Assembly: GCA_905178155.1 (NCBI GenBank)
Contig: CAJINV010000011.1
Location: 1,819,216-1,883,215 of the forward strand
Length of the DNA stretch: 64,000 bases
Reading direction: 5' to 3'
Origin: Amoebophrya sp. A120
Lineage: Eukaryota > Protista > Dinoflagellata
In this document: positions 1 through 63,977 of the stretch, piece by piece
Numbering within the stretch: position 1 is the first letter of the stretch
How the letters are laid out: each line of letters opens with the position of its first letter
Made by a program: the position numbers and the translations under genes
Notes under the pieces: generated by a model
Told to the model about the DNA's origin: nothing
Databases searched by the model: none
The model's input: only the letters and a program-made list of their open reading frames with translations

Positions 1-153
1 AGGATGAGCAGATGAATCTGTGACGCGGCTGTACTTGCTAACCTGCACTACACTGCATAGTCCAACTTGTCATGCGTGACTCACAAAACTCCTAGGTTTG
101 TGTTGCAAAATCCCCATCCTGACTCTGGTGTGGGTACGTTTTTACTCAGGATA
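1..153. mobile_element. Introner, partial (only the right TIR is in the window), in dynein gene
   Basis: Ends ...gactctggtgtgggtacgtttttactcaggata, nearly identical to the right end of the 6659-6927 element. It interrupts the reading frame at NSGDV. Confidence 0.8.
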
Positions 154-3100
154 GTACATCCCCCGAGTTCAACACCGAGTTAATCACCTCGACAAACTGC
201 TCGTTCACGATCTGCGTGTCCGTGAAGAGAAACACTTGCGTTTTCCCCTCCACGCCAGACCGCTTCAAAACCGTCTTGATATCGTCCCGGAACTCCACCA
301 TCCCGTACCCCTTTGCGACTTCAATCTGGTAGCATCCGTTGTCGTTTGCGAAAGCCGCTAATCTCGCAGACGACTGCCTTCCGGACCCGCCGACCCCGAG
401 CAGCAGCATGTTCCCCTGCGGTTGGTTTAACGTGCGGTTGATCCGCGCGACGTGCTCGGCGAAATCGAGGAAAATCACCAACGGCATGGGTGTGGGGAAC
501 TGGTTGTTGTAATCGTCCAAGTAATCCTCAAGAACTTCCACCATCTTCGTCAAGTCCTGAATCTCTTCGTAACTTCTGCTGTCCAAGGGTTCCATGAATT
601 CCGCGAAGATTAGCCTCTCGTTGTGGAACACCTCGGCGACGTCGAATGGGGCGAAGTTGGTCTTGATCTTCTCCTCTAATAAGTTCTGCAGCCACGTCCT
701 GTCCCCAGCGTCGATCAAGCGATCGCCGAACACCCGGGACACCTCGTGGCACCAACAGCGAAGAAGCACGATCGGGCCCTCGACTTTTTTCGGCAGGAGG
801 GCGCACACGCCCATAAACACTTTCCAGATGTCGCGGAGGTTGAAGAGGTAGTGGGCGCGGGCCGGGGTGGGCAGAAGATCGAGCAGAACCTGATGAACAA
901 TGAGAATGGTTGAAATCGAAAGTTGCTATGCGGATTCGCATAGAAGACGAGGAATTGGAAAAATGCTTTGTCATGCAAGAAGACAGCTACAGACGGTCTA
1001 CTTGAAAATCAGTTTCGCATTTTCTTTTTACCTTGTTAAACACTTCTTTCTGCGCCTCGACCAGTTTCGGTACAAGTGCCTTGACGTCTTCCGGAAACGG
1101 GTCGAAGAATTTGTTTGCGATCGTCGTAAACATCGTCGTAATCGCCGCCCCCGTGAAATCGCTGTACCCCAAAACGTTGAAGTGGCGCTTCAGACGCTCC
1201 GTGATGAACGTTCGGCCGCCTCCTGGGGTTCCCATGCTGCCCGCAACCAACATGTCAATGATTTGGAAGTAGGCAAGCTCTTTTCGGTTGTACCTGGTTG
1301 TATTCGAGTTCTACCGACTTTTGCATCACAAATTCGCTTCTCGCACAACAAAACAGCCGGCACATCGCATTCAAGCATCTTCACAGATCTCGCTGTTCTT
1401 CAAATAAACTTCGCATCACAAATTCGGATTCAGACATACTTTTACTTGCAATGCATGAAGGGATGAACTACTCACTACCATCCTTCGTGGTCAAACCACT
1501 GCCGGAGCAGCTCGATCGGCGGCTGCGCTCCGTAGAATTCCTTCTGTGGCATGTTCAGATCGTCCGTGAACAACACCATCTTCTTGCCCGCCGGCGGGCC
1601 GTAGACCCCCCTTCGCCGTTTCTCCAACTTGCTGTCGATGAAGTCCTGCACTTGGTTGACCTGCGTCTGCGCGGAGAACGCGAGATTGGTGGTCAGGAAG
1701 TTACCCGGGGCGTACTTCTGGAGGTATAAAGACAGATTCACCGTCTTCCCCGTCCCCGTGGGTCCGCAGCACAGCACGTGGCTGTCGTTTTCCAAAAGGA
1801 TATGGAGCTCTCAACTGTTACATTCTCAACTGTTACATGAAATTTGTAATGCAAGAATGGCAAAAGTGAAAGGGAAAAGCTTGCTCCTTTTGCATTACAG
1901 GTTTGGAGCAGATTACAATGCTATCTAGCGTGTCGAGAACTTGTCATGCGGAGAAGGTTTGAAATTGTGAAAAGTGATAGCGTTTTTGCATGACAAATCA
2001 TGTAACAGTTGAGAATGTAACGTTTGAGAGCCCCATAAAGGATTTTAAACGCGTACGTCATCCGGATGGAATCCAACGAGGGGACGACAATGTTTTCGTA
2101 CTTCGCGGTTCGCGGGACCTCAAACGCCGGGATGGTGTCCATCCACGGGACCCACTTCCCCGTCGTGATGTCGAACATGTAATCGTAGAGGTTGGCGCCC
2201 TCTTCCGGAATCCCGTCGAGTTTGAAGTCCATATGCCTCGTTGGGTATTTATGCATTGCAAATATGTCTGGGTCTGGAAAGCGCCAGGTTTGCCATGCAT
2301 GTTTTGCATGACCCATAATGCCTGTAATGCATGGCCTAGCGTCACAGATTTTTAGCAGGCTTCCTGATGCCTGTTCCGCATGACAAATGCCCTCCCCGCG
2401 TAGCACAAACTGGACTCCTCTTGTTGGTCATGCAATACAGATTTTTTTGGAATCCAAAGTTAGCATCACAAGTTCCAACTTTCCACACGCAGACCCGGAC
2501 AGTTTTGCACTTCATAGTACTCCCAGGTCGGGTCGTTGTGCGCGGCGTGCTTCGCGGCCCACTTCTCGTCCTTGCTATGAAAGTGCACAACTCCCCCTCC
2601 CCCTCATTTGGATGGCATCCGCGGCAACACAAGTCCTGGCACAGATGGAGCTTTTGCACGACAAATTTACGACTGATTGTAGTGCTGTTTGGGCTTCCGA
2701 AATTTGTCATGCAAAAAGTGCCACAAGGCAGCGAGAGCGACTGGCTTTGGTATTTTGCATGACAAATGAGGGGGAGGGGGAGTTGTGCACTGTCATACTT
2801 GCCGATGGTGGTCCACAAGTAGTCGTTCAGCTGCTCCCGGTTGTTCGCGCCGGCGAGACTCCCGCCGACCGACCAAACAAGGCAGAAGAGAAACAAGTCC
2901 CCGAAGATCGGCTCCAGGTCCTCCACTTCCTTCTTAAAAGCGTCGATCAATTTCAGCTCGGTGGGCCAGTAGGCCGCGTAAAAGGTGTTGAGCAACCGCA
3001 TGCAGCTGCAGGCGAGGTTTTGCGCAGTCGTGGAGCAGACCTCCCCGAGGGATTTCTTGATGTAGAAAATGGTCGTGTCGAAAATGTCCGTCATGTAGGT

Positions 3101-6100
3101 CTTGAGACGCTCCTGGTAAACCGGCTTGAACTTGAGAAAGGTTTCAGGAATCGACTCCACGTAGGACTGGATCAAAGGGTCCAGGGTAAGCGACTCGGGC
3201 TCCATGTAGATCATACCGCACCGGGAAACGGTGGCCGGACTGGCGACCTCTAAATCCTCAACTTCGAACATCATGCGCATCTGCGGGGTCAGACCGATGA
3301 TCTCACCAGAGACCAGGCACAGCTTCTTGTTGTCGTCCAGGACCTGAAATTATTTGTGAATTATGGGTACTGATTCGTACTGAATTGATCTTTGATGCTC
3401 TTTGATTTGATGCACGACGAGACACTCATGATTTGCATTCCCGCGAGGAGCGCAATGATGTTGTGAGTCTCATCATCTCAACATGCAAACACATAGATAC
3501 GCAAACCAAAGGAAGTTGTGCTTTGTGTATTCAAAAAATATAATCCTTCCTAGTACCGTGTTCATCGACTCGATCCACAGTGCATCCACTGGTCCGTTAT
3601 CCCACAGAAAAAAGCTGGCAGGGCATATTTGTAATGCAAAGATAAATACACAGGAAAATCTGTCATGGGCGGCCTCATAGCATGCTATTTAGGATATCCA
3701 ATACATTTTTTTTGTCTATTTATTTTTGCATTACAAATATGACCTGCCAGTTTTTTTCTGTGTGATATCCGTCGAAGATGATCCAGTGGTGATCCGGACT
3801 CTCTGCGTCCCGAACCGCCACTATCAAAAGGAAAAATCCCCCCTCCCCATATCGAAGTGGAAATCTGTGATGCAGGATTTGGATACACAAATCGGATTTG
3901 TCTTGCAGTAAGGCATCGCAGCCAGATCCTCGGCCTAGGTCGGGGCGTATAGGTCTAGTTGCTTAGCATTGCAAACGGGTGTCCCCTAGGCGCAACAGCA
4001 CGCCAAATCGATTCCATAATGGTGCGGAAGCCTTTGCGCTTGTCTTCTTGCAAGACAGACGTGATTTGTGATCTCAAATCAGCAACGCAAATTTTCGGAA
4101 ACACACCTTTTCGATATGGGGTGGGGGGATTTTTGCATTCAATAGCCACACGGATCTGCTCACTCCCGATCCCGTCGGTCCACTCATGCGTGAGCTCGTC
4201 GAACGCCCCGTAAATTTGCGCCTGCGTGATGGATTTTGGATTGAGGATGTGCGTTTGCGTCTTCTGGTAAGGCGACTCGTCGTTCCTCTCGGGGGGGCAG
4301 AGCACCGTGCAGGCCTTCTGCAACACCCGGTAGTTGCAGGTCTTACCCCCACCGGTCGGGCCCACCAACATCATACCGTGCCGCACTTGGATCATGTCGA
4401 AGAGTTCGAACATCTTCTGGCAGAAATACGGTGTGGGCTGGAGCTTCGACTCGACCGCGCACTCGTTCAACTTCTCAGCGAGCTGCCCGTAGTCCACTTC
4501 AGGTCGGTCGGTGCCCGGGAACAGATCCAGAATGATGTTCTCGAACAGGGGTAAATCGTCCCTCAAAAATTTCGGCACGTTGACATCCCGTAGGGCCCGG
4601 AGAAGGATTTGGAACTCCTCCATGTCCGGGAAGATTCGCTTCGACCGCCCGGCCGCCTCGATCACCGTCTTCACGGCACGCATGCCGTAATCGTAGTGGT
4701 CCTGGGAGGAGAGCTGTTCGGACGCGAGCTTAAAGGTGGACACCATCTTCTTCGCCATGGCGCGACCACCGGTGAAACCGAAGGCGTAAAACATGATCTC
4801 GCCAATCAACGCGTAATCCGGCACCATCATCGCGCAGGGGCGGAAAAGAGCGGAAAGGTTGTCCGGAAGTTCCGTGCGACCGGCGTAACTGTGAAGTGAT
4901 TTTAGGTGCGAAAAATCTACAAGCATCTATTCTTGTTAGAAACCGTTTTGTTCTAAATTTTAGGCCTTATTTTGCAAGAGACAGACCGATTTGCATTTGT
5001 GATGAAATCATATTAGGCAAACAGCAACACAGTAAACAGTTGTTCATCTTACCCTGGGTTCATCGTGATAAACACGTTGAACGTCGGTCGCATCGCGATA
5101 AATGAGCCCTCGAAATCCAGTTCCAGCACTTCGCTGTAACTGTTCAGCTGCGACTTCCCGCCGAACAGAATCAGCAGCTGCTGCGCGATCACGGACAGCA
5201 CCTCAATGTAGATCCGGTTGAACTCATCGAAGCAGCACCAGGCCCCGCACACGGCCAGCCCCTTGAAGAACTTCCCGACCATGATGTAGTCCATCTCCGG
5301 ACTGCAGTTGAACACGACGCACTGCTTCGCCAACGCTTTCGCCAAATCCTTCGTCGACTCCGTCTTCCCCGTCCCGGCCGGCCCGGCGGGGGCGCCACCC
5401 AGGTTCAGGGACTGCGCGCCCATCAGCGTCATGTAGCACATATCCGTCAACGCGGTGATCACCAACCGAAACGTGTTCCCCAAATACTCGTACCCGTACG
5501 GGAAATTTGTCTGCACCATCCGGACCCAGACGTTTTCGATCCCCGTGTCGTCCTCCTCCCAGTAGTAGCGTAATTGCGAAATCCACTCGAACGCGTCCTT
5601 GCTGTCGACCTTTTCCTCGGTCAATCGCTGTACGACATCCTTCGCGTGCACGTCGATGACGACGAGAGCTCCGATACTATGAACTGCAAAAGTATCGTAC
5701 TCGTATAAATGCATTACAAATTTTCTCAGCATGAGAAATGAAATTTGTAATGCTGATTTGCCTTGACAAAGAAATTTGTAATGCAAGACCTGCATTTATA
5801 CGAGTACGATACTTTTGCACAGCATAGATACAGGTGCGCTGCAACTTCGTGATCTTCCCTCGGACCAGCATCACCAGGCCCATCAGCTGCTCGCCCAGCT
5901 TCTCTATGCATTGCAAAAGTATCGCACTAGTAGAAATTGCAATACAAATTGGCTCAGCATTACAAATTGAATTTGTAATGCGGATTTGCCTTTAGAAAAT
6001 GACCTGTAATGCATAAAGGCAGTTAGTACGAGTACGATACTTTTCTTGCCCAGGATATTCTCCCAGTAGCCCGTGACCATGTCGCCCTCAATCGCCTCTT

Positions 6101-9100
6101 CCACCTCGTTATCAACTGCAAAAATGTCTGGGTCTGGAAACTTGTGATGCTGGATGGCGTCTCATGATGAGGCCACAAGTGCTGGCTCAGCATGACAAGT
6201 TTCTGAGCTTCTAGGTGTTGCCTATTCTGCATGACAAACTGCGTTTTTGCATCACAGAAAAATGATGAAGCTGTTGGGTAACGTGCATGACAGATTTGAG
6301 AGTCATGCCAGACAAGCATGACAAACATGCATTCTTCCAGACCCAGACATTTTTACATTTGATACTCGTCGGTCCAGTGCACCTGCGAACCGTTCAACAC
6401 GCACTGCCCGGGGTGCTCGAGCACCCACTTGGTCCTTTCCGTGTCCACATACGTCTCGATACTGGTTTGCATCACCGCGCGAACTGAGTTGCACATTTCC
6501 TTTTCTAAATTCCCCATCCACTCCTCCACGTTTCGGTCCTTCGTTTTCACCTCCTGCGCACACACGATCTTCTCGCCCTCGGAAGAGAAGATCTCCAACA
6601 CCTGCATCTCCTCCCCGAATGTCACCCGCTTGATGTTCTCGAACACCTTGCACAGGAATATCCCGTGTAAAAACATTCCCACCCCAGAGCTGCATGCCAA
6701 AACAGTTTATCATGCGGAGCCCTATGAGAAGCATTCTCTCTTCGTGTTTTGAAATTTGTGATGCGAGAATCAGCGTTCTATGATAGATCTGTGATGCTGC
6801 TGACCTACCTAAAACAGGACTACACTACAAGGATCGAAACTTGTCATGCCAAACAACCAAAGCTGGTTGGTTTGTCTAGCAGGTTTCCCATCTTGACTCT
6901 GGTGTGGGGACGTTTTTAATCAGGATAAGGAACGGCTGCACCCGGGTCGGGTCTTTTGTCTGCGAGAGAATTTCCAGCAATTCGTCGTTGGAGAGGAAGT
7001 AAAATCGCGCGAACGCGTCGCGCTTCGTCTGCAGGTAGTCGTCCAGCCCCTTCTGGACGAATTCTAGGTCGTTGTTCGCGTTCCTCCACTTCTCCAACAG
7101 CCCCTCGGTCGATAGAATGTTCAACGCGCCCGGGTTCTTGTGCACCCGGCCCATCCAGTGCCGCCACAGGTGGTCCACCGCCTTGAACTTTTTCCCCTCG
7201 GTGGGTAATTGCTTCATGATATCCGGCGAATCGAAAATTGGCTGCAGATACATCCAGGCACGTTGTACCTTCAGCCACATGTCAATGCACTCGGACACGT
7301 ACAGCAGCTTCACCGCCCACTCCTCGATCTCCTCGATAAACGGTTTGTTGAACGGGGAAAATTGAATCGCCTGCGTGAGCACATTCTGCTCGTCGAGAAT
7401 GGCGTTGACCTCCTCCGAGCCCTTGAGGATGTAGGTTTCCGTGGTCCGGTAGAACTCCTTGCAATCGAACTCGATGGGCTCCCAGTCCGCCTTCATCTTC
7501 GCCAACTGCTTTTCGATCTGGAACTCCTTTCCGGACCGGTCGCCGATGTCGCTGATCTCGGTCACGGTGTTCATCAAACCTAGATCGATGAAGTTCTGCA
7601 AGGAGAAATTCTCCATTTCCGGATCTATGGTCACCCCCACCAGCTCGCTGATCTGGGTCCAGTGTCGCTCCTTCATACCCTCGTTGCGCATCGCGACAAT
7701 TAAAGGCACGTACTGTTGGAAATCGGCCAGCTCCTCCTTGATCTGTTCCGTGATCGCCAAGACCCCCTTGTAATCCTCTCCGCGAGCCGTGAACGCCTTG
7801 GTGGCTTTGAACAGCAATTTGATGCCGGTGTTGGTCCGGTCCTCGCAGTCCTTGGCCTCGATCGCGTCGAACTTGCCGGAAAAGTACGCTTTTTTCTTGT
7901 TCTGCCAGTCCGACGCCTGCTTCCACAGGATCGAAAAGGGTTCCCAGTCGCGCTGCATCACCGTCAGGTTGCCGTAGTCGTGCGGCTCCATATCCAGTGC
8001 AGATATGTCTGGGTCTGGAAAGATGCAACTTGTGATGCCGCCTTTGGATCCTACATAACATCTGTATTGCATCAACAGCAACAGAGGTGCAGTTTTTGCT
8101 ACGCGGAGAGGGCATCTCTTATGCGGTATGAGCATCAGAACAAAGCCCTCGCAGAATCTCTGGTGCTAGGGCATGCATCACAGACCTCTGGGGTCTGTCC
8201 TCGTGGGTCAATGGTCATGCAAAATCTGCATGACAAACTCCTGCATTCTTCCAGACCCAGACATATTTGCAATGCATATTCCACGCCGAAGAGTGACTCC
8301 TTCAGGTTGAACAGCTTCGAGGTCTCCTGGTTGGATTTCAAACGCTCGGAGATGCTCTCGGCAGAGTCGTTGATGGACTGGGAGTCCGACAGGTCGGTGA
8401 AGTTGACGAAATTTGCAATGTCCTCTTCCAACTCGTGCAGCGTGTTGTCGAAGTGGAATTGCTCATCCTGAATCTCGCGGAAGAAGCTCTTCATCGTGTC
8501 CGCGTGCTCTTGCTTCACCTGAAAGTAGAAGTTTGTCAACATGCGAAGAGTTTTGCAAATGTGCAGTTGCAGGCAGACCTGCTTTGCGAGCACCATGAAG
8601 GTAGGTGTATGCAAACATGAGGCTCTTCAGTAGCACCAGTTTCATTCAACCGCTGCACTACTAGCAGATGTTGAACCTCCTCCTCCTGACAGAAAGACCA
8701 TAACCAATTGCATAGATATGCATTTCGATTCATTTTCCTATTGAATTACCTCTGCAATGGTGTCCATGATATCCTTGGTTCCCTTGAAACAGCTCCATTT
8801 CAGGTCTGTGGCGTCTTGTGGCACCTTCAGCCTGAAATCTTCGACAAGGATGTCGTAAACGTCGAAAACTTTTTTTGCTTCCCCATTATGCATTGCAAAA
8901 GTATCGTACGTAGTGTAAAATGTAAATCGCATGGCAAATTTTTCAAGCAGGAAAATCAAAATATGTAATGCTGAATTAGCTATAGAAACCAGATCTGTCA
9001 TGCTGTACTGCGATTAGTACGAGTTGTACGATGCTGTTGCATTCGATACACTTCGAGCTTTAGCAATTCCCCAGGCACGGTTTCCATGTACTCCTTGATT

Positions 9101-12100
9101 TCGGCCAGTTCTTCGACGTCCTTTGGCGCTTTCTTCAACGAGAGCTTAATCTTCGTGTACTGTGCCATCAGCGTCTCGGCCATCTCACGATACCTGCACG
9201 GATTTCATTTGTGCGTACGAGTGAACAAACTCTACTTTTGATGGCGCCGAGCACGACGAGATGTTGAAGATTGATGATGTTCACGTACCGACTTCAACTT
9301 GTATAAATGCAAAAACAGATTTGAAATGAAAACACAGAAAAGCAAAGCGCAGCAGACAACTGTTATTACCTTTTATCCAGCAACTTCAGCAGCTCTCCCG
9401 CGATGCTGTTGTGCTTTTTCGCGAAGAGATTTCTGGCCTCCGAGAGCGAGATTTCGTACAAGCCTGCCGTGATGCTTTCTGGCAGGGATTCCATAATGGC
9501 GTGTTCCTTCTCCTGCTCCTCGTGTATGTGTTTTGCGATGTCCTGCACGGACGCGGGGTTTTCCTCGTCCTGCTTGCTCGCCACAATTTCTGCCACGTCC
9601 TGCTGAAGCGGCTCGAGGTACGGAGTGATCAGCTTCCTGTAATCCTCCAAACGGGCGGCACCGTACCTGGTTTTATTTTGCAGGGTCAGGGATTTTTTTC
9701 GAAAAAACTAACAAGGATATGAGTTGTACTACATCATACATAATGTGCTGAGCGGCTGTACTAGTCGACATTTCATTCCCCTTCACATTTTTTTTCTAAA
9801 TCGAGATCAACATGATCGGAAGCAATCCTAAGCTGCAATACGGTTGCATCATTTTCTCTAATCTTTTCTTGACCGCGACCACCTTCTCGTCCGACGGGTG
9901 CGTGGTCTCGATGTTTTTCGGCGGGTCCGTTTTTCGCACGAATTGCGACATCACCAGGGGTTCTGGCTGCGAGATGTCGGCCATCGTGACGAGCGCGGAG
10001 TCGATGACCTCCGTGACCATGGTCAAAAAATCCGCCCCGTTGGCGCTGTACGCCGCCTGGAACGTGTTTTGCTCCTTGTTTTCGTTTATCAAATGCAAAA
10101 GTGTCTGGGTCTGGAAGCTTCTGAGACTTGTCATGCACGTTTTGCATACGCCATGATGTCTGTGATGCATGCCGTAGCATCACAGATTGTTCGCGGGGTT
10201 CTTGATGCCTCTTTCGCATGACAAATCCAAATGCCCTATCCGCGTAGCAAAAATTAGAATTACATTCCCTTTGCTACTCATGCAATACAAATTCTTTTGG
10301 AATCCAAAGGCAGCATCACAAGTTGCATTCTTCCAGACCGAGACACTTTTGCATTTGATATCGTTCACCTTCAGCTCCATCAGGAAAATCCCCGCCACGT
10401 CGTCCCTGGAAAGCTATGCAAGGAAAAAACTGTGTAAGTGTAACTTTGTGTTGCAGAAAATGCAAAACCGTTGCACTCGTCATCCTGGACATGCATCAGA
10501 GGTAATTTCCGTGCGTGTTCTCACGTACTAGCTGCGCATGACAGGTTTTCTGTGTCATGCAGAGCAAACCTGTGATGCTATTCCCCCAAGAAACTTACAC
10601 TTACACAGTCTTTTTCCTGGATAAAAGCCCGTTCAGGATCATTTCCGGCGTCGGTGTGCGGAAAGCGACTTCCACCTCCTTCAGACTCTTGATCGTGCAC
10701 TTCGTCGGCGTGTAGTTCACGATCTTCTGCTCGTACGCCTGAATGCTGGCGCGAACCACCTCGAATATGCTGGTCTCCATGATGAAGCGAATCATGGTGA
10801 GCAGCTTCTTGATCTTGCCGTATTTGTACGTCTCAGCGTTGGTTTCCTTAATGGAATACCTGAAATTGGGAACAAAAACAAATTGCGATCATTTTGCTTG
10901 GGACTTCATACATGCACTTGACCTCTTTTAGGCACGAAACCGATGTTGAAATCTGCATACTTACACAACGGAAAGCGAAACAAGTAGGTCGCGAGCAAAC
11001 TCCTATAATACCATCCCTTCTGCACGTCTTCAAAATTGGTGACCACCACCTTTTTCAAGTCCAGCACCCACTCCTTACACCTGCTCAGCATCGCGTTTAT
11101 GCTTTGCGTCTGCAGCGTTCGGAACTGGTCGATCCGCGCGTTGCGCGGGAACTTGGTCTGGAAAATCTTCGTGCCGTAGGATTTCTCCAGCGCGAGACAG
11201 GCTTCGCGGATCTGCACCAACGTCGTTACCACTTGTGGCTTGACGTAGAGCGAGGAGAAGCAGAACTGCGCAAATAGGTTCGTGAAATTGTATGCCGGCA
11301 CGGGGTGAAGCGCGTAGAACTTCGCGGGCTTCCTAAATGCGTTCACCGACGCGTAGCTCGAGTCCACGTCGGGCGCGCCCGTTATGGCCTGCTCCTCCAT
11401 TTCGGCGAGGGGGGACAACCCCTTCGCCTCGCCGGTGACTAGTAGACACAGCCGGTTCAACACGCGACCGTAGTCGAGTTTTACCTCGTTGACCAAACTT
11501 TCCACGAAGTGATCCATGCCGTTGCTGCACAGCTCGGCGCTGGACCGCGCGTTCTTCTTCAGTCTAGCGACTTGGTCCACGTTCAGTGTGGAGATGCCGT
11601 CCGTCGGCACGTTGTCCACGTAGAAAAGAAACTTGATGTGCGAGGCCACGAGCTGTCGCTGGCGGAAGGCGTTGGCGACGCGGTCGGCGTAGGCCACCGG
11701 GTCCTCGCCGTCGAAGAAAAAATCTAAGCGGGACAGGAAGCACGGCGTCTCGTCGTCGTACCACAGTCCGTAGAAGTAATTCGTGTCGTCCCCTTCGTAC
11801 TGGTAGATCACGCACGCCTCAAACGACCCGTCCGCCTCGCCGCCGACGCGCAGACCCTTGGCCTTCAGCCCGGTGCGCTTCTTGCTGCCCTTCGGCGGCT
11901 TGGGAATCAGCGTCATCCACTCGCGCGGCTTGCGGACGTCGTACTCCGTGTCGTTATGCACTGCAAAAGCATCGCACTCGTATTGCAATTTATGCACTAT
12001 CTTTTTCTTACGGTAAATCAGCATTACAAATTCTACTTGTTGTTGTTTTCTCATACTGAGGAAATTTGTCATTGTCATGCATTTGTACGAGTACGATACT

Positions 12101-13276
12101 TTTGCAGTGCATAGTCGTCGAAATCCAGCAGGTCAAAATCGTTGGAATCCAACTGGGACTCCTTAATGCCCTTGGGGTATGCAGAGAAAAAAATTTTTAC
12201 TCGGAATTAATATACACGTTCTGTGCCACCTGTTGCTACTGAAAAAGCCGCTGGCGATTGAAGGTCAAACAGGATAAAAATGCAATGGAAAATGCAAAAA
12301 ATGTGCACACGACACAGAACGTCGAATTTAGCATTTTATCTTTCCCCTTCCATACTTTCCTGTCGAGCTTCACTTTCCGGTTCCGCAAGCTGCGGTTGCT
12401 TTCCTGCACGAAGTCGGCCATACTTATGCCCCGGTCGCGGAACAGCTCCTCGGGGTTCAGGCTCGCGAAGTACCGCTTTTGTCGCTCGACCGTCACCTTG
12501 CGGGGCTTGGTGCCGGGGGCGTGCGCGTACACCTCGATAACCTTCGGCTATGCAATGCAAAAGCATCGTACTCGTACTAATTGGAGCTATAATGCATTGC
12601 AAATTTTTTCTTAACGTAGATCCACATTACAAATTCAATTCAATTTGTAATGCTGAGCCAATTTGCATTGCAATTTATACTAGTACGATGCTTTTGCATT
12701 GCATATCGGCTCGATGGAGCCGATTTCTACTATCTGGGAATCCGGATACGCCAGATCCAATGCCTTCCCGTCGATTACCGTGTCTGTACCTGAAAGATGA
12801 CATCATTTTTCACGATGCTAAACCTGAAACGCATCCATAACCTAACCATAACCAAAACTACACGTACATCTACGTGTACATGTAGGTGTACATGTTGTGC
12901 CGCATTACAAATTCAATCTGCCATCCAAACACATCAAACCTTATCCTTGATATTCTGTACTTATCAACTTATCCGCGGAGCTGCGTTCCTGCCTGCCTTC
13001 GCCGTTGAGCGCCTTTATCTTGGTTCGCCCGGCGGCCTGCAGCTGCTCCAAATACGCGTTGCTGCGGCTGCGGCTCTCGTCGGACATGCGAAAGCTGCTG
13101 GCGGCCGCGCTGCCGTGCGTCCGGATGGGGCCCTCCCGCCAGCCCGGGCCCATGCGGCACCCCTCCACGTCCTCCTCATTGTGCTGGCGCAGGACCTCGG
13201 AAAAGATGCCCCGCTGCCGCGACTTCGGTTGCGGCTTCGCCGACGAAGAGGACGCTTTCGACGTGGGACCCTCCAT
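146..13276 (-). CDS. DNAH1: Axonemal inner-arm dynein heavy chain, DNAH1-like (multi-exon; 3' part runs off the left end of the window)
   Basis: Spliced exons give the N-terminal PGxKPRKVxVERQKRY and [14 protein letters not shown] motifs typical of DNAH1-type chains, the linker ([29 protein letters not shown]), AAA1 [22 protein letters not shown]2 [17 protein letters not shown]3 [16 protein letters not shown] and AAA4 [13 protein letters not shown] introns at about 890-1031, 1294-1478, 3344-3556, 4889-5052, 8519-8749, 9194-9369, 9667-9841, 10860-11011 and one ending ~12790 (donor not located). Most of the others are TIR introners. Start codon and exact ortholog are uncertain. Confidence 0.95.
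1801..2037. mobile_element. TIR introner (non-canonical intron) in dynein gene
   Basis: ~40-bp TIR tatggagctctcaactgttacattctcaactgttacatga; TSD aagga (1796-1800 and 2038-2042); removal gives FKIL|LEND in frame. Confidence 0.93.
2250..2516. mobile_element. TIR introner, tgcaaatatgtctgggtctggaa family
   Basis: tatgcattgcaaatatgtctgggtct ... agacccggacagttttgcacttcata; TSD gtatt/gtact; removal gives TWEY|PTRH. Confidence 0.88.
2576..2797. mobile_element. TIR introner in dynein gene
   Basis: 35-bp TIR tatga(a/c)agtgcacaactccccctccccctcatttg with 1 mismatch; TSD cttgc (2571-2575 and 2798-2802). Confidence 0.93.
3598..3767. mobile_element. TIR introner splitting the AAA2 FDGPVD motif
   Basis: ~50-bp imperfect TIR tatc(c)cacagaaaaaa(g)ctggcagg.catatttgtaatgcaaa; TSD tccgt; removal restores [14 protein letters not shown]. 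Confidence 0.93.
3822..4144. mobile_element. TIR introner in dynein gene
   Basis: tatcaaaaggaaaaatcccccctccccatatcgaa ... ttcgatatggggtggggggatttttgcattcaata; TSD gccac; removal gives [17 protein letters not shown]. Confidence 0.9.
5678..5826. mobile_element. TIR introner, tgcaaaagtatcgtactcgta family
   Basis: TIR tatg...tgcaaaagtatcgtactcgtataaatgca; TSD gatac; removal gives [14 protein letters not shown]. Confidence 0.93.
5905..6057. mobile_element. TIR introner, tgcaaaagtatcgtactcgta family
   Basis: tatgcattgcaaaagtatcgcactagta ... tacgagtacgatacttttcttgcccaggata; TSD ttctc; removal gives YWEKLGEQL. Confidence 0.88.
6110..6364. mobile_element. TIR introner, tgcaaatatgtctgggtctggaa family
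   Basis: 30-bp TIR tatcaa(c/a)tg(c/t)aaaaatgtctgggtctggaa; TSD ctcgt; removal gives HWTDEVEEAI. Confidence 0.93.
6659..6927. mobile_element. TIR introner in dynein gene
   Basis: tatcccgtgtaaaaacattcccaccccagag ... ctctggtgtggggacgtttttaatcaggata; TSD aggaa; removal restores [13 protein letters not shown]. Confidence 0.92.
7991..8278. mobile_element. TIR introner, tgcaaatatgtctgggtctggaa family
   Basis: tatccagtgcagatatgtctgggtctggaa ... ttccagacccagacatatttgcaatgcata; TSD ctcca/ttcca; removal gives FGVEPHDYG. Confidence 0.92.
8887..9048. mobile_element. TIR introner (degenerate), tgcaaaagtatcgtac family
   Basis: tatgcattgcaaaagtatcgtac ... gtacgatgctgttgcattcgata; eroded TSD cccat/cactt; removal gives LLKLE|GEAKKVF. 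Confidence 0.8.
10087..10360. mobile_element. TIR introner, tgcaaa..tgtctgggtctggaa family
   Basis: ~31-bp TIR tatcaaatgcaaaagtgtct(g/c)ggtctggaag; TSD tcgtt; removal gives ELKVNENKEQ. Confidence 0.93.
10415..10623. mobile_element. TIR introner in dynein gene
   Basis: tatgcaaggaaaaaactgtgtaagtgtaa ... ttacacttacacagtctttttcctggata; TSD aaagc; removal gives [11 protein letters not shown]. Confidence 0.92.
11955..12113. mobile_element. TIR introner, tgcaaaag(c/t)atcgtactcgta family
   Basis: TIR tatgcactgcaaaag(c/t)atcg(c/t)actcgta; TSD gtcgt; removal gives LDFDDTEYDVR. Confidence 0.93.
12549..12705. mobile_element. TIR introner, tgcaaaagcatcgtact family
   Basis: TIR tatgcaatgcaaaagcatcgtact(c/a)gta; TSD tcggc; removal gives [11 protein letters not shown]. 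Confidence 0.93.
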
Positions 13277-26902: not shown

Positions 26903-28643
26903 TCAATTGCAGCCCCACCTTGGTCGTGCGGGTCGCGCCAAATGTTCCCGGACAAACAGTCCCTTTCTGTTGCGACCGCACACGCGCAGGTTGGTCACCG
27001 TATCGCCAACCTGGTAGGCTTCGAATCCCTTGTGCGCTATTGCGTTGAGGCCGTTGCAGGAAAAATGCGTCTCCCCCTCGGGGTATGCATTGCAAATGCG
27101 TCATGGTCTGGAAGGATTCTGATTTGCATTGCACACGCGCTCACGGCATGACAAATCACGCGGAGGGTTTTTCTTTTTTTTATGCCTAGTGTGCATGAGA
27201 AACAAATACCCTGAAAACCAAAATCGGACATCCTAACCTTTGCTTGACTGCGCAAGACAGATTTTTGCCTGGAGCAGAATCCCCATCACAAGTAGTTGCA
27301 ACAAACCTTCCAGAGCCAGACATATTTGCAATGCATACAGGTGTCCGGTTTGTAACGAATCCGTCGACATAAACGGTGCGCTCGTCTTCATCAGGTGTTG
27401 TCTCATCTAGATTTTGACTCGCCTCGTCAGACGCTTGACTGTGATTCTGCAACAGTCCATCGCTCTCCCGTGAGGCCCTTGAGAGGTGAGGATGTACCGC
27501 CGTCGCGACTGTCTGTTGACCTTCCGCGCGCGCGGAAGAGCAGCACCTCTGCCCGTGCTTATCTACGAGGTCTGCCGGCCTTGACGACGCGAACAGCTCC
27601 CGATTGAGCTCTGCGTATGGCAAGTAACGCTGCTGGGTCCGCCGAGCGACGAATTCTCCGGTCGGGTCCCGAAGCATCCGTCGTAAAGCTGCAGCAAGGT
27701 GGGGGAGCACCAAACTTCCCTCTGCCGCGTAGTGAAGAGCGTCTTGCGAGAGCGGTCTGTGCTCCCATACGGAGTTATACAGGTTTTTGTTTTTGGTGTG
27801 TAATGTTGGCTTGTCCTGCTGTGCCTGTGGTCGTCCATAGCTTTCTTCGTCATCATCATTCACCCCGTCGCCCTGCTCATCGTGTAGCTGGTTCTCTGAA
27901 GTAGATGCGGTGAATGCTGCAGCGTAGCTCGATGAGAAGCTACCATGCAACCGCTGCCCCGCCCGTTCCACCGCGTCCCAGCGGCGCTCTTTGTACAGGC
28001 CTGGGAGAAAGATTCTTAACAGCTCCGGCAGAGACGCCAGGTATTTCGTACTGCCTTTGCGCTCCAAGTGGGCCAGGTGCGCAACTTGGGTGTCGAAGGC
28101 GTTTTGCAGTTTGATATCGTAAAGTGCCCGCAAAAACGCGGCGTCCTCGCGACAATCGTGGAAAATTTTGCGGACGTCTGTGCGCTCTTGGAAAAAAGTT
28201 CGCAATGTTGCTCGAGTTGCATCTTCCTCCAGTAAAGGGCTTGAGAAAGCGCTGCTCTCCGGCGACGACAGAGTTTGCGTTGTCCCTCGTGCCGCTTTTG
28301 TCTTTAAGGCTCTTGAAGCACCACTGTTCCTGTTGCACTCAAGTAAATCCACGAGAGCGAGTTGCTGCAGCGCCGGCGAGTAAATTTGAAGTAAACTGGG
28401 TTTCCCAAAGCGCCCCAAATGTCCCTCAAGATCCACTCCAACCTCGGTCCGCGACGGAATTTCGCTGACGAAGTTCTGAAGCTGCTCTGGCAGGGTCAGG
28501 TACAGAAGGGTGGTTCCCCGTGGTTTACTTCTTGCTGCTCGAGCAGCGGCAACTGCTGCACCGGTCCAGAGCGACGCAGCGCGCGATGACATATGCGGCT
28601 TGACGTCGGCTGATATTTGTTGATGGTGACCGGGGGTGGTCAC
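26903..28643 (-). CDS. DEDDy 3'-5' exonuclease (EXD1/egalitarian-like)
   Basis: ExoI VGVDLEG...LLQI; ExoII KIFHDCREDA...FDTQVAH; ExoIII-like WEHRPLSQDALHYAAE. The last exon (PEGETHFSCN...WGCN*) joins in frame after removing the introner at 27084-27337. Start uncertain. Confidence 0.85.
27084..27337. mobile_element. TIR introner in exonuclease gene
   Basis: tatgcattgcaaatgcgtcatggtctggaagg ... ccttccagagccagacatatttgcaatgcata; eroded TSD cgggg/caggt; removal gives NRTPEGETH. Confidence 0.85.
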
Positions 28644-59262: not shown

Positions 59263-61406
59263 TTATTCTTGGTCCCGCATGTACACTTTCAAAAACCCGG
59301 TGATGTTACCTCTACAGACCGGACACCGTTTCTGGAAGTCATCGATCATGAAGTAGTCGATCATCAAGTAGTCGGCGCAACTCTCGCAGAATGGCGCGTG
59401 TCCGCACGGATTGACTGCGAAAATCGGAGGACGACATGGTTCGTAACACACGTGGCACTCGGGCTCGCTTTTTGCGCGCTGCAGCTCCACTTGGACCCCA
59501 ATTTGCGCACAGAGATCCACGCAACGGCCCGCAACCGAAGAAATATCGGACTCCATTCCGGCTTGGGGGTCGCCCAAACTGCCTCCCACGCGACTGTCCC
59601 TCTGCCGCCGGCGGATGAAGTGAGCCACGTAGGCTGCTATCGCATTCCGGCCGAGCATGCGGACGGTCTCTGCTGGATTGTCGCCCAATAACATCTTAGC
59701 AACCTGCTCCACGTGGATCGCTTCTTCCTCGGGCGCCTCAGCAGTACGTGCGTCGAGATTGGCCTCGTAACACTCGAGATATGGATTGCAAATATATCTG
59801 GGTCTGGAAATTTGTAATGCTTGTGCGAAGCCAAACTGGCTGTCGAGTTTGTTTGTATAATGCATCTTGCGCAAGAGCAAGATGACCTTCGCTTGTTTGT
59901 ACTTATCGCAAGAACGCGATTTCTCTCTCGGAATACGCACATTCACGGAGCAAACAAACTTTGTTATGCTTGCCTGCGAAGTGTGGGTATGCTGTTGCAT
60001 TGGCCTTGGCGATCATCCGAGATTTAGCATTACAACTTCCCAGATCCGGACATCTTTGCAGTGGATACGAGCAGGTCCTTCACGATGTCACCACTAGAGT
60101 CCGAATCTGTGTTTCGTACAGCAGCCGAGAGTGCGGTTTCGCCCGTCCCACTCGTCTCGTCGAACTGAATCTCTTTGTCGTGCGGTCTGTGTCCACGACT
60201 TGTTAATTTGCCCGACTCATGCCATCTACGCAGCGTTCCTGAAGTGAGGTTTTTCACTGCTGCCGCTGCGTGCGGGAGTCCGCAGGATGTGGCGTAAGCC
60301 AGCATTGTGTGGACCGGCTCGCTCTTGATGGTGTTGAGGAGCAACTGCACCACTTCACGCCGCCCGCTGAGCACGGCTGCAACAAGCGGCGTCACTTGCT
60401 TGGGCCCGTGTTTGGCATTCAGGTTTACAATTTTTCGCAACCCCCAGGGCTTTTCGCCGGGTCCTAGGGGACGCACAAAAAACTTTTCAGCAGAAAATTC
60501 TTTCCTGCGTTTCTCCATGAGCGAATTTCGTCTCTCTGCCAACATCAGGCAAATCGAATTCGCCGAAGGCGGGTTGCTGGTGTTGCTGTTGCTGGAGCGA
60601 TTAATGTCCTGGAGCGAACCGCTGGGTGGGTCACGCACGCCTTCTCCGGAACGTGTTTGTTTGAAGAGTTTGTTCCACGGACGGACTGGAGCGAGCGCCT
60701 CACTGTCAAGCTGGGCTAGATGAGCGGAGCTGGAGTGCGCGCTCGATGAATGGCGGATACGGAAACGCAGGTCTTCCGCTTGCTCAGAAAGTATTTGTTT
60801 GTAATGCTGGCGGCGATTTTGCTCGTTTTCGAAGACGACCGGATCCAAATCGAGGAGCTCGATCAGGCGCAGGTAATCGGTTCCAGAGGACTCGACTGTT
60901 CCGTCACCCGCACACAGCTCATACAATTCTCGTTCGAGTTGTCGTTCTGCGGAAACTCCAACGTAGTTTTCCATGCATTTGAAGACGCGACTCCAGCTAA
61001 TGCCGCGCTCCGAGTTGTCGCTTTCAGAGTCGGTTACGAGAGCGCTGCTGCTGCGGGTGGGCGGGGCGAAGGTGCAGGAGCCGGCGGCTCGTCCTCTCGT
61101 CGGACGAGTGTAGCCCGGGAATAGGCCCAAGGGCGGTGGCTTCTTACCGTCAGAGGTGATGTCATGCCGTTGCAGCATGTGCAATTCGAGGCATTTACGC
61201 GCGTCGACGCGAAAGAACGCTTCGGGCCGAAAGCACCGGCTGCACTGCGGACAAGTAGCCTGATCCGACTCGTACGCGACTGGCCGGTAGCACTGCATCC
61301 CGGGTCGACGCCTTAATAGTCCTCCGCCCGCGGGTGCACTGGAGGCGTCCGTCGGCGACGGTTCCGGAGGCTGCCTGCGAAGCCCCTTCGACTGCCTTTG
61401 CCCCAT
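59263..61406 (-). CDS. Ankyrin-like repeat + C-terminal C3HC4 RING protein (paralog 2), putative E3 ligase
   Basis: MGQRQSK start; CPQC...HMLQRH; TPLVAAV; GETALSAAV; CHVC...PCGHAPFCESC...CPVCR. Extensive similarity to paralog 1. Confidence 0.85.
59780..60067. mobile_element. TIR introner in RING paralog 2
   Basis: tatggattgcaaatatatctgggtctggaaa ... ttcccagatccggacatctttgcagtggata; TSD cgaga/cgagc; removal gives KDLLECYEANL. Confidence 0.9.
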
Positions 61407-62592: not shown

Positions 62593-63977
62593 TCAACAAT
62601 CACCAAGCAGCCGATCCCGTATCCCTTGCACGGTGGCTCGGTACTCCGGCACGGCTGACGGCTATCGACTGCAAATATGTCATCTGGGTCGTCTGGAATT
62701 GGTAGATCGGGAGAGTTTATTTCTGATGTCAGGCAAATTGTACAATGACCCGGAATGGTGGTCTCGGTGATGCATGCTCTAGCATTAGCATTAGCATTAG
62801 CATTACAGGATTTGGATTTGCGAAGATCTTGCATGAGGATAAATGCTTTCTCCGGACAGCAAATATTTATCAGAGCGCCCAGGACCAAAGAGCATATTTG
62901 CAATGCATAACAGCATGTCCCCTGCTATAGTCCCGGTTTCAAAATCCACGTCGTGGCGCCCTTTTAGCGTTTCTACGTCTATTTGCAGCAGGTTCCCTAG
63001 CGACCGGAAGGCCGCTTCCTCCGTCCGCGGTGCTGCGCTTGTTCGTTTGTCCTCTGCCCCCTCGAGAAAATGCGTAAACCAGGAATCCACATTCTCCTCC
63101 TGCGCAGCGTGCTGTGTGGGGGTCCCGAAAAGCGGGCTTTCCTCTTCCGTGTGCATCACGTAGGCGGAACGGTCGAGGAGGTAGATCCGCTATCCTGTGT
63201 AAATAAAGCGCCCCCGCGACCCCAAAGCCAGCACGATGTGATAATTCTATATCTGCTAGGTAAGTCCACAAGTTTATTTGCGATTGGCGCATGACGGATT
63301 GATGAGATGCAGATTTTCAGATTTGCATGACAAAACTCTGGGGTCGTGGGGGGCGTTTTTACTTCTCTGGATCATATCCGCAAAATGCACATCCCCACCG
63401 CAAAGCTGTCCGTTTGTCGTGGGTAATAGTGCGCCCTGAGCACAAGTTCCGGAGCACAGTACGTGGCGCGCCCGCACCCTGCGTCCTGCGAACACGAGAA
63501 GAGCCGGTCTTGAGGCAGTGTCGTTGTAGTAGTATGCCCCCCTTGGTCTTCTACTTCCTGGTGCTCCTCCTGACCCTCAGAACTACTACAAGGAGAAAAA
63601 TTATTTTCGTCGTCCGCAGGGTTCGTGTCGCAGAACCCTAGCCGCCCCTCCGCCCCCTCCGGTCGTTCGGCTCTGGAAGATGAACCGCTGCTGCATTCCG
63701 AAGATGTTGCGGCAACACAGGGAAGCTGAGTCCTCGTCGGAAATAAATTGCTCTCGTCACGACAAGAACTTGTGGCAGCTGCCAGGTCGTGATTGCAGCG
63801 GCAATTTAATAAGACCGCAGGCGAGTTCTCTACCAATGAGCTGAAGTTATATGGTGGCGCGGGAGCGGGCTGGAGTTCGAAGCAGCCCGGAGTCATTTTC
63901 TGCTGCAAAAATGCGTCCTCGGCTGGTTCTCGTGGCGGAGCTCCCGTGGCCGAGGCGGCCTGGAGTTGTCCTGTCAA
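62593..63977 (-). CDS. Hypothetical protein, 3' part (start probably beyond the window)
   Basis: Three exons join in frame after removing two introners: ...ATYCAPEL...DSFAVGMCILRIYLLDR...GDMLSAVPEYR...GDC*. YCAPE and DSFAVG resemble kinase subdomains VIII-IX. Confidence 0.6.
62663..62909. mobile_element. TIR introner (degenerate) with an internal (TAGCAT)4 run
   Basis: tatcgactgcaaatatgtc ... gagcatatttgcaatgcata; TSD acggc/acagc. Confidence 0.82.
63191..63376. mobile_element. TIR introner
   Basis: tatcctgtgtaaataaagcgcccccgcgacccca ... tggggtcgtggggggcgtttttacttctctggatcata; TSD tccgc; removal gives ILRIYLL. Confidence 0.88.

Follow-up and report, generated by a model that had tools for sequence, protein, structure and literature searches.

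Within a 64-kb stretch of the Amoebophrya sp. A120 genome (contig CAJINV010000011.1; hereafter the window), a minus-strand gene for a DNAH1-like axonemal dynein heavy chain is interrupted by short elements with terminal inverted repeats (TIRs) that start TAT and end ATA, typically flanked by a 5-bp target site duplication (TSD). The ten elements of this gene that were tested against transcripts are removed exactly at the RNA level without GT-AG signals. The terminal T-A of the elements was furthermore found to be conserved only at the 5' end in transcript sense. The removed intron probably has the fixed form N-TAT...ATA-NNNN, starting one base before the TIR and ending four bases after it. The elements as such are already known, as they represent the published introner class in the published strain.

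The original prediction of about 16 insertions in the dynein gene and seven elsewhere stands for the gene, which contains 15 complete elements and a sixteenth cut at the window edge (right end 151-153). Outside the gene the relaxed scan returned seven elements (eight rows, one of them a duplicate call), including the predicted one that starts CAT, and an eighth at 63192-63376, missed by the scans, was spotted by eye. The gene had been equated with the span 1..12705; it runs past both of these ends. Its elements are 149-323 nt long (relaxed scan of 1-12705), sort into eight similarity groups and occupy, together with the extra repeat copy, 3,369 of 12,552 nt. The direct repeat predicted for every complete copy is perfect in 12 of the 15, while two copies carry one mismatch and one carries two. 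Hairpins of 80-800 nt were sought in an unbiased scan that applied neither an end rule nor a TSD rule; it detected 85 hairpin diagonals in the window, while the three block shuffles gave 4-7 each, and 11 of the hairpins in 1-12705 have an exact 5-bp repeat outside TAT...ATA ends. The first 12.7 kb, i.e. the conserved dynein gene, holds 16 of the 24 window elements; no elements were detected in the long open reading frames (ORFs) without Pfam matches at 15.7-20.7 kb.

Excising each element plus 5 nt, together with ten GT-AG introns, yields a single open frame of about 2,600 codons, whose identity to dynein homologues is 44-54% in the main alignments; in this gene model, the first two canonical introns from the 5' end are uncertain. 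As had been claimed, the motifs FDGPVD, QPFLCKVF and HWTDEVE are regained once the inserts are removed. The claim that no in-frame GT-AG boundary can be drawn within the repeats also held, since none of the 15 elements has GT-AG or GC-AG ends in any register leading to the same product. Nine of the ten modelled canonical introns begin GTA, the three transcript-confirmed ones included. At four canonical introns (1294-1478, 9194-9369, 9667-9841 and 10860-11011) the next exon begins GTA and thus repeats the donor, and a 6-nt direct repeat spans the borders of the last; such introns are possibly older insertions.

The removal was followed in contigs from four runs (two samples, one study) aligned to the region 2060-9180 at 99% likeness. 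The records are not labelled as RNA, and the runs were treated as transcripts because their contigs lack the canonical introns. The region covers ten of the 15 complete elements (outside it lie 1801, 10087, 10415, 11955 and 12549), and at all ten, in all four runs, the contigs skip exactly the element plus 5 nt, in line with the predicted precise excision without GT-AG. The 13 joints common to the four runs comprise three GT-AG introns and these ten elements, and no alternative joint with a share of at least 20% is listed. In run X5 the contigs pass unbroken from exons into elements, which shows the elements to be genomic, and one piece (8254-10111) spans element 8887 and three GT-AG introns. 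In 5678-5826 and 6110-6364 the 3' TIR holds an acceptor-like motif, a perfect TTTTGCAG, located 10 nt ahead of the inferred cut; the assembled joint lies elsewhere. Two RNA runs available as raw reads, X8 and X9, contributed 97 and 3 reads, which fall almost entirely on TIRs and give hardly any exon cover. About 90 reads of X8 match only the TIR at 6333-6364 and have one foreign flank, which suggests a retained element in another transcript.

According to the original prediction the removal is guided by the TIR hairpin or the direct repeat, yet neither a paired stem nor a perfect repeat looks necessary. Long hairpins are the predicted fold of most elements (z -6.0 for 6110). Elements 5905 and 8887 are predicted to be unpaired at the first 7-8 TIR positions and are still skipped exactly, so that a perfect stem is not required. 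The same applies to a perfect repeat, since 8887 is removed exactly despite two TSD mismatches.

The TIR pattern matched at least 161 stretches in a metagenome collection and none in viral contigs; 150 loci, all from one assembly and amounting to 665 kb, formed a second data set. Proteins of this assembly share 93-96% identity with two A120 proteins and are identical over the exons of a third, by which it is a close sister strain and hence not fully independent. In loci and window together, 231 of 435 unbiased hairpins combine a perfect 5-bp repeat with TAT/ATA ends, the repeat lengths at hairpin ends being 5 bp in 252, 4 bp in 86 and 6 bp in 9 cases. The element catalogue, which is biased toward the TIR family used as search pattern, holds 430 elements as compared with none in 96 kb of shuffled sequence; their TSD is imperfect in 91, their median length (loci and window) is 259 nt and TIR positions 11-13 are A in 87-94%. 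One terminal rule common to several TIR families, as originally proposed, thus holds in the loci as well as in the window.

Strands were set by a codon model (neighbouring elements agree 192:3). Both insertion orientations are equally frequent (2398 versus 2410 pairs; 90:74 in the largest family), and any removal signal, as well as any branch point, must therefore lie in the TIRs. When one end was required to read TAT and the other was left free, mutations of the terminal T/A (positions 1-2) numbered none at the 5' end against 13 at the 3' end in a set of 297 oriented elements (p 0.00024), most of which derive from the sister strain. Before two misregistered rows (L015:8809 and L030:15184) were dropped, the counts were 2 versus 15 among 299 (p 0.002). 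Position 3 is not biased in this way (six mutations at the 5' and two at the 3' end), nor is there a clear bias at the inner positions 4-26 (lowest p 0.036). In the window, the degenerate CAT end of element 56683 is the 3' end in transcript sense. This polar signal points to sequence reading at the donor.

The position of the cut can be expressed as k, which counts how many TSD bases of the upstream copy are retained. Inside a perfect repeat the border is invisible to RNA, while an imperfect repeat locates the cut. The bounds given by three transcript joints (2250, k>=2; 7991, k<=4; 8887, k>=4) are all satisfied by k=4 only. Database proteins add a Leu at 62663 (k>=3) and a Met at 46557 (k<=4) for elements of the window. 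Among the loci, 39 elements have non-synonymous mismatches; 19 neighbouring ORFs were looked up and three elements resolved, by Lys at L014:9444 (k>=4), Asn at L014:9994 (k>=1) and Glu in the AT5.2 orthologue at L039:1966 (k>=1). Altogether, 9 of 9 resolved mismatch positions, in eight elements, agree with k=4. The gene product at L039:2-2734 is about 86% identical to the AT5.2 protein P0154, which is continuous over two element sites. AT5 introns were reported to be 99.98% canonical (PMC7789003), so that AT5 DNA may show empty sites.

The TSD mismatches themselves are polar: at positions 1-4, C lies in the downstream copy in 37:11 and a purine in the upstream copy in 28:8, while position 5 is even (C 4:3, purine 2:2). 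The two TSD copies could not be told apart by stop codons (0 of 97), nor did codon likelihood or GC/AT direction carry information on them. A bias in intron phase (129/275) was set aside, since codon composition can explain it. The loop of U5 small nuclear RNA (snRNA) is U-rich, and a polarity at positions 1-4 that is absent at position 5 would fit exon ends pairing with this loop. Pairing between U5 and exons has been described (PMC8283771). The nine top non-canonical intron classes of A120 in Table S4 of Farhat 2021 all begin N-T, consistent with k=4 (PMC7789003).

We slightly favour a scenario in which the elements are transposable elements of the miniature inverted-repeat type (MITEs) of a putative DDE transposase and are removed by a relaxed spliceosome reading N-U-A and measuring the acceptor. 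A cut-and-paste transposase would insert the element with a 5-bp stagger, a step suggested because of the TIRs, the constant TSD, the families and the free orientation. The element and one TSD copy would then be removed exactly from the RNA at the fixed offset k=4, whereby one TSD copy would be rebuilt in the mRNA. In either orientation the TIR would supply +2U and +3A of a GUA-like donor; under k=4 these are the bases protected at the 5' end, and they match the GTA start of the canonical introns. Reading of N-U-A by the relaxed spliceosome would perhaps precede transcription of the 3' TIR. With less confidence we presume that this spliceosome would need neither +1G nor AG any longer and that the acceptor would be placed by measuring from the 3' TIR or from the base of the stem. 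The elements lack the GT/GC...AG donor and acceptor of U2-type introns, and the U2-type +2U donor position would be conserved in them if k=4 holds. Nearly all spliceosomal proteins and the U2, U4, U5 and U6 snRNAs have been reported for A120, while U1 snRNA was not detected (PMC7789003). That the A120 spliceosome gave up both terminal dinucleotides, with an N-U-A donor and an acceptor four bases past the hairpin, is a possibility to which we give somewhat less than even weight. If true, the TAT end and the 5-bp duplication of an unclassified integrase-type transposon would form a complete, orientation-free cassette able to create an intron without a scar wherever in an exon it lies; this would account for the tens of thousands of introners in the A120 genome. 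The originally suggested single machinery for mobilisation and excision seems unlikely, since insertion acts on DNA and removal on RNA.

Several points weigh against this scenario. Few sites carry the register: with random registers per element, the bounds of the three RNA cases would agree with P 0.50 and those of seven elements with P 0.13, which makes the agreement on k=4 suggestive only, and k=4 was moreover picked from the first three joints. The protein checks use gene models built from transcript alignments and not reads, three of the five compare the sister strain with the protein of another strain, and two of the five yield only k>=1. Of 97 TSD mismatches, 51 are synonymous, compared with an expected fraction of 0.36-0.43 if the intronic copy were free (p 0.04), and this excess could reflect a slipping register. 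The evenness at TSD position 5 relates to only 13 mismatches, and Table S4 depends on the placement by the aligner inside repeats. No enrichment of G at +1 or of AG at the 3' end was found, no branch-point position stood out within the TIRs, and the search for short snRNA motifs gave no convincing match; Rfam detected nothing in the window and one weak sub-threshold match in three loci. The hairpin would bury the donor from +2 onward, and contigs drop rare isoforms. Finally, motif scan, long-element scan and the ORFs of locus L018 revealed no transposase in the 665 kb of loci.

A non-spliceosomal or otherwise separate structure-guided machinery, of the kind proposed for euglenid nonconventional introns, could produce the same fixed offset by making its cuts 1 nt ahead of the stem and 4 nt behind it; we regard this main rival as rather unlikely. 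The predicted pairing at TIR positions 1-3 (probability at least 0.7 in 12 of 15 elements) would suit such a cut, but mutations disrupting the terminal pairs are tolerated at the 3' end and absent at the 5' end, and the predicted lack of pairing at their ends does not prevent the splicing of 5905 and 8887. A TSD without GT or AG bias, the undetected U1 snRNA and the fixed, unequal spacers around paired motifs in Euglena (PMC12501133) would likewise be compatible with structural guidance. However, the conserved bases equal +2 and +3 of the canonical donors of the same gene.

It seems improbable that the cut slides within the direct repeat and the repeat buffers any register, corresponding to the variable border of Farhat 2021, where the legend of Fig. 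3 terms the sites variable (PMC7789003). The synonymous excess and the chance probability for the bounds of seven elements mentioned above would be expected from sliding, but all nine resolved mismatch positions fall in with k=4, no alternative joint reaches the 20% share, and the TSD polarity at positions 1-4 is absent at position 5.

It is very improbable that nearby GT-AG sites are used or that the elements are retained in a pseudogene, excised from DNA or assembly artefacts: although each of the 15 elements has in-frame GT/GC..AG pairs no more than about 20 nt away (at 2576 a GT..AG option 3 nt away, not the assembled form), the ten observed joints refute site shift and retention for their dominant form, the skipping contigs also lack canonical introns, the X5 contigs link exons to elements, and the second assembly shows the same grammar.

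With their TIRs, a TSD of constant length, their shortness and the lack of an internal transposase the elements have the features of MITEs, and judged by these features they are likely MITEs of a cut-and-paste transposase. By Pfam, none of the 68 ORFs of the 64-kb window encodes a transposase. Three long TAT...ATA elements (L018:505-1608, L025:632-1465 and L053:3862-4492; 631-1104 nt, perfect 5-bp TSDs) contain extra internal DNA and match no Rfam family at threshold; in L018 no transposase-like ORF was seen. The termini TA..TA are shared with IS3EU/GingerRoot, whose TSD is usually 6 bp as opposed to 5 bp here (252 versus 9 six-bp cases), while TDD-4 and TDD-5 of the Ginger2/TDD group, whose TSDs measure 4-5 bp, have a 5-bp TSD like these elements, but Ginger ends TGTNR and not TAT (PMC10045372, PMC2836005). 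The pair of TAT end and 5-bp TSD therefore appears to fit neither group fully, and the termini would point to an integrase-type DDE transposase outside those families as mobiliser. For A120, a family of introners bearing both TIRs and Copia/Gypsy-like ORFs has been reported (PMC12130899); a search of Dataset S2 of that report gave no match for the genus name.

The proposed link to Amoebophrya introners was confirmed by the same TIR pattern in the same strain. Farhat 2021 described A120 introner elements of about 240 nt with a TAT start, repeats of 3-5 nt and RNA support, counted 29,850 repeated introns and left the intron border unknown (PMC7789003). Their inverted repeat of TAT, seven variable bases and AAA is found here, as are repeated families and RNA removal without GT-AG; the 3-5 nt direct repeat, with a 5-bp example in the legend of Fig. 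S19, is 5 bp here (PMC7789003). A window exon outside the dynein gene is 100% identical to an A120 protein, so the host is the same. There is no difference in kind, as far as the accessible text goes: a variable repeat length is given there, while a fixed register and 5' polarity are proposed here. In the literature searched (subscription papers outside its scope) no report of either was found, and Farhat figures 3 and S19-S25 may hold positional detail bearing on the register.

Euglenid nonconventional introns are likewise TIR-bounded, have TSD-like repeats, lack GT-AG and have a junction at a set distance from paired motifs (PMC12501133, PMC11282704). Their signature N3CDG...CH'GN5-6|R (PMC12501133) was not found by eye, the elements having N-T-A-T at +1 to +4 under k=4; unlike in euglenids, the conserved motif is the terminal TA and the spacers would be 1 and 4 nt. 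Transposon-derived introns and a modified spliceosome also occur in Fritillaria borealis, with ends mostly AG-AC or AG-AT, duplicated U2AF and altered snRNA N6-methyladenosine (m6A) (PMC13326754, PMC11282704). In contrast, both terminal dinucleotides are free here apart from +2U.

How Amoebophrya removes its more than 60% non-GT-AG introns has been open since 2021, partly as the repeat hides the border. Imperfect duplications represent natural markers by which the border can be read from existing RNA-seq. If true, the fixed N-TAT...ATA-NNNN rule would allow gene models to be corrected, direct the search for lariats and distinguish a relaxed spliceosome from a pathway like that of Euglena. The system also shows a way in which a transposon can cease to do harm within exons, whatever the site and the orientation. 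The added value thus consists of a cheap, decisive handle on the splicing question and one polar signal, the latter being well supported.

Table 1. Dynein gene, TAT...ATA elements and control introns of the window
Feature	Position	Strand	Evidence and remarks
DNAH1-like axonemal dynein heavy chain gene	154..13200	-	Pfam DHC_N2, AAA_6, AAA_8; DNAH1-named homologues; 5' start approximate, 3' part extends past position 1
Element cut by window edge, ends ATA at 153	1..153	-	transcript contig piece ends at 154
Element, perfect 5-bp TSD	1801..2037	-	scans, frame; contig spacing fits, joint not listed directly
Element, TSD 1 mismatch (position 2, transcript sense)	2250..2516	-	joint 2244-2517, 3 letters ambiguous; upstream TSD copy kept
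Element, perfect TSD	2576..2797	-	transcript joint, scan, frame
Element, perfect TSD	3598..3767	-	joint 3592-3768
Element, perfect TSD	3822..4144	-	joint 3816-4145
Element, perfect TSD	5678..5826	-	joint 5672-5827
Element, perfect TSD, TIR pairing degraded	5905..6057	-	joint 5899-6058; folds
Element, perfect TSD, strong hairpin (z -6.0)	6110..6364	-	joint 6104-6365
Element, perfect TSD	6659..6927	-	joint 6653-6928
Element, TSD 1 mismatch (position 5)	7991..8278	-	joint 7986-8280, 4 letters ambiguous; downstream TSD base kept
Element, TSD 2 mismatches (positions 2, 4)	8887..9048	-	joint 8881-9049, 1 letter ambiguous; upstream TSD copy kept
Element, perfect TSD	10087..10360	-	scans, restored frame
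Element, perfect TSD	10415..10623	-	scans, restored frame
Element, perfect TSD	11955..12113	-	scans, restored frame
Element, perfect TSD	12549..12705	-	scans, restored frame
Canonical GT-AG intron (control)	3344..3556	-	transcript joint
Canonical GT-AG intron (control)	4889..5052	-	transcript joint
Canonical GT-AG intron (control)	8519..8749	-	transcript joint
Element in 3'-5' exonuclease gene, TSD 2 silent mismatches	27084..27337	-	scan; protein P0121 continuous over joint
Element, TSD 1 mismatch	40286..40588	-	scan
Element, perfect TSD	40703..40959	-	scan
Element, TSD mismatch at position 5	46557..46859	-	database protein (Met)
Element, CAT...ATA as written on plus strand	56683..56962	-	scan; strand margin 3.8
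Element, 1 silent TSD mismatch	59780..60067	-	scan
Element in kinase gene, TSD mismatch position 3	62663..62909	-	database protein (Leu)
Element, perfect TSD	63192..63376	-	seen by eye

Elsewhere in the window, positions 35811-35910 are filled with N, 100 in total, representing an assembly gap or a mask. Tandem and inverted repeats make up a tract at 53300-55850 that is unrelated to the TAT elements and has copies of 72-89% identity in the sister assembly (L023, L002).

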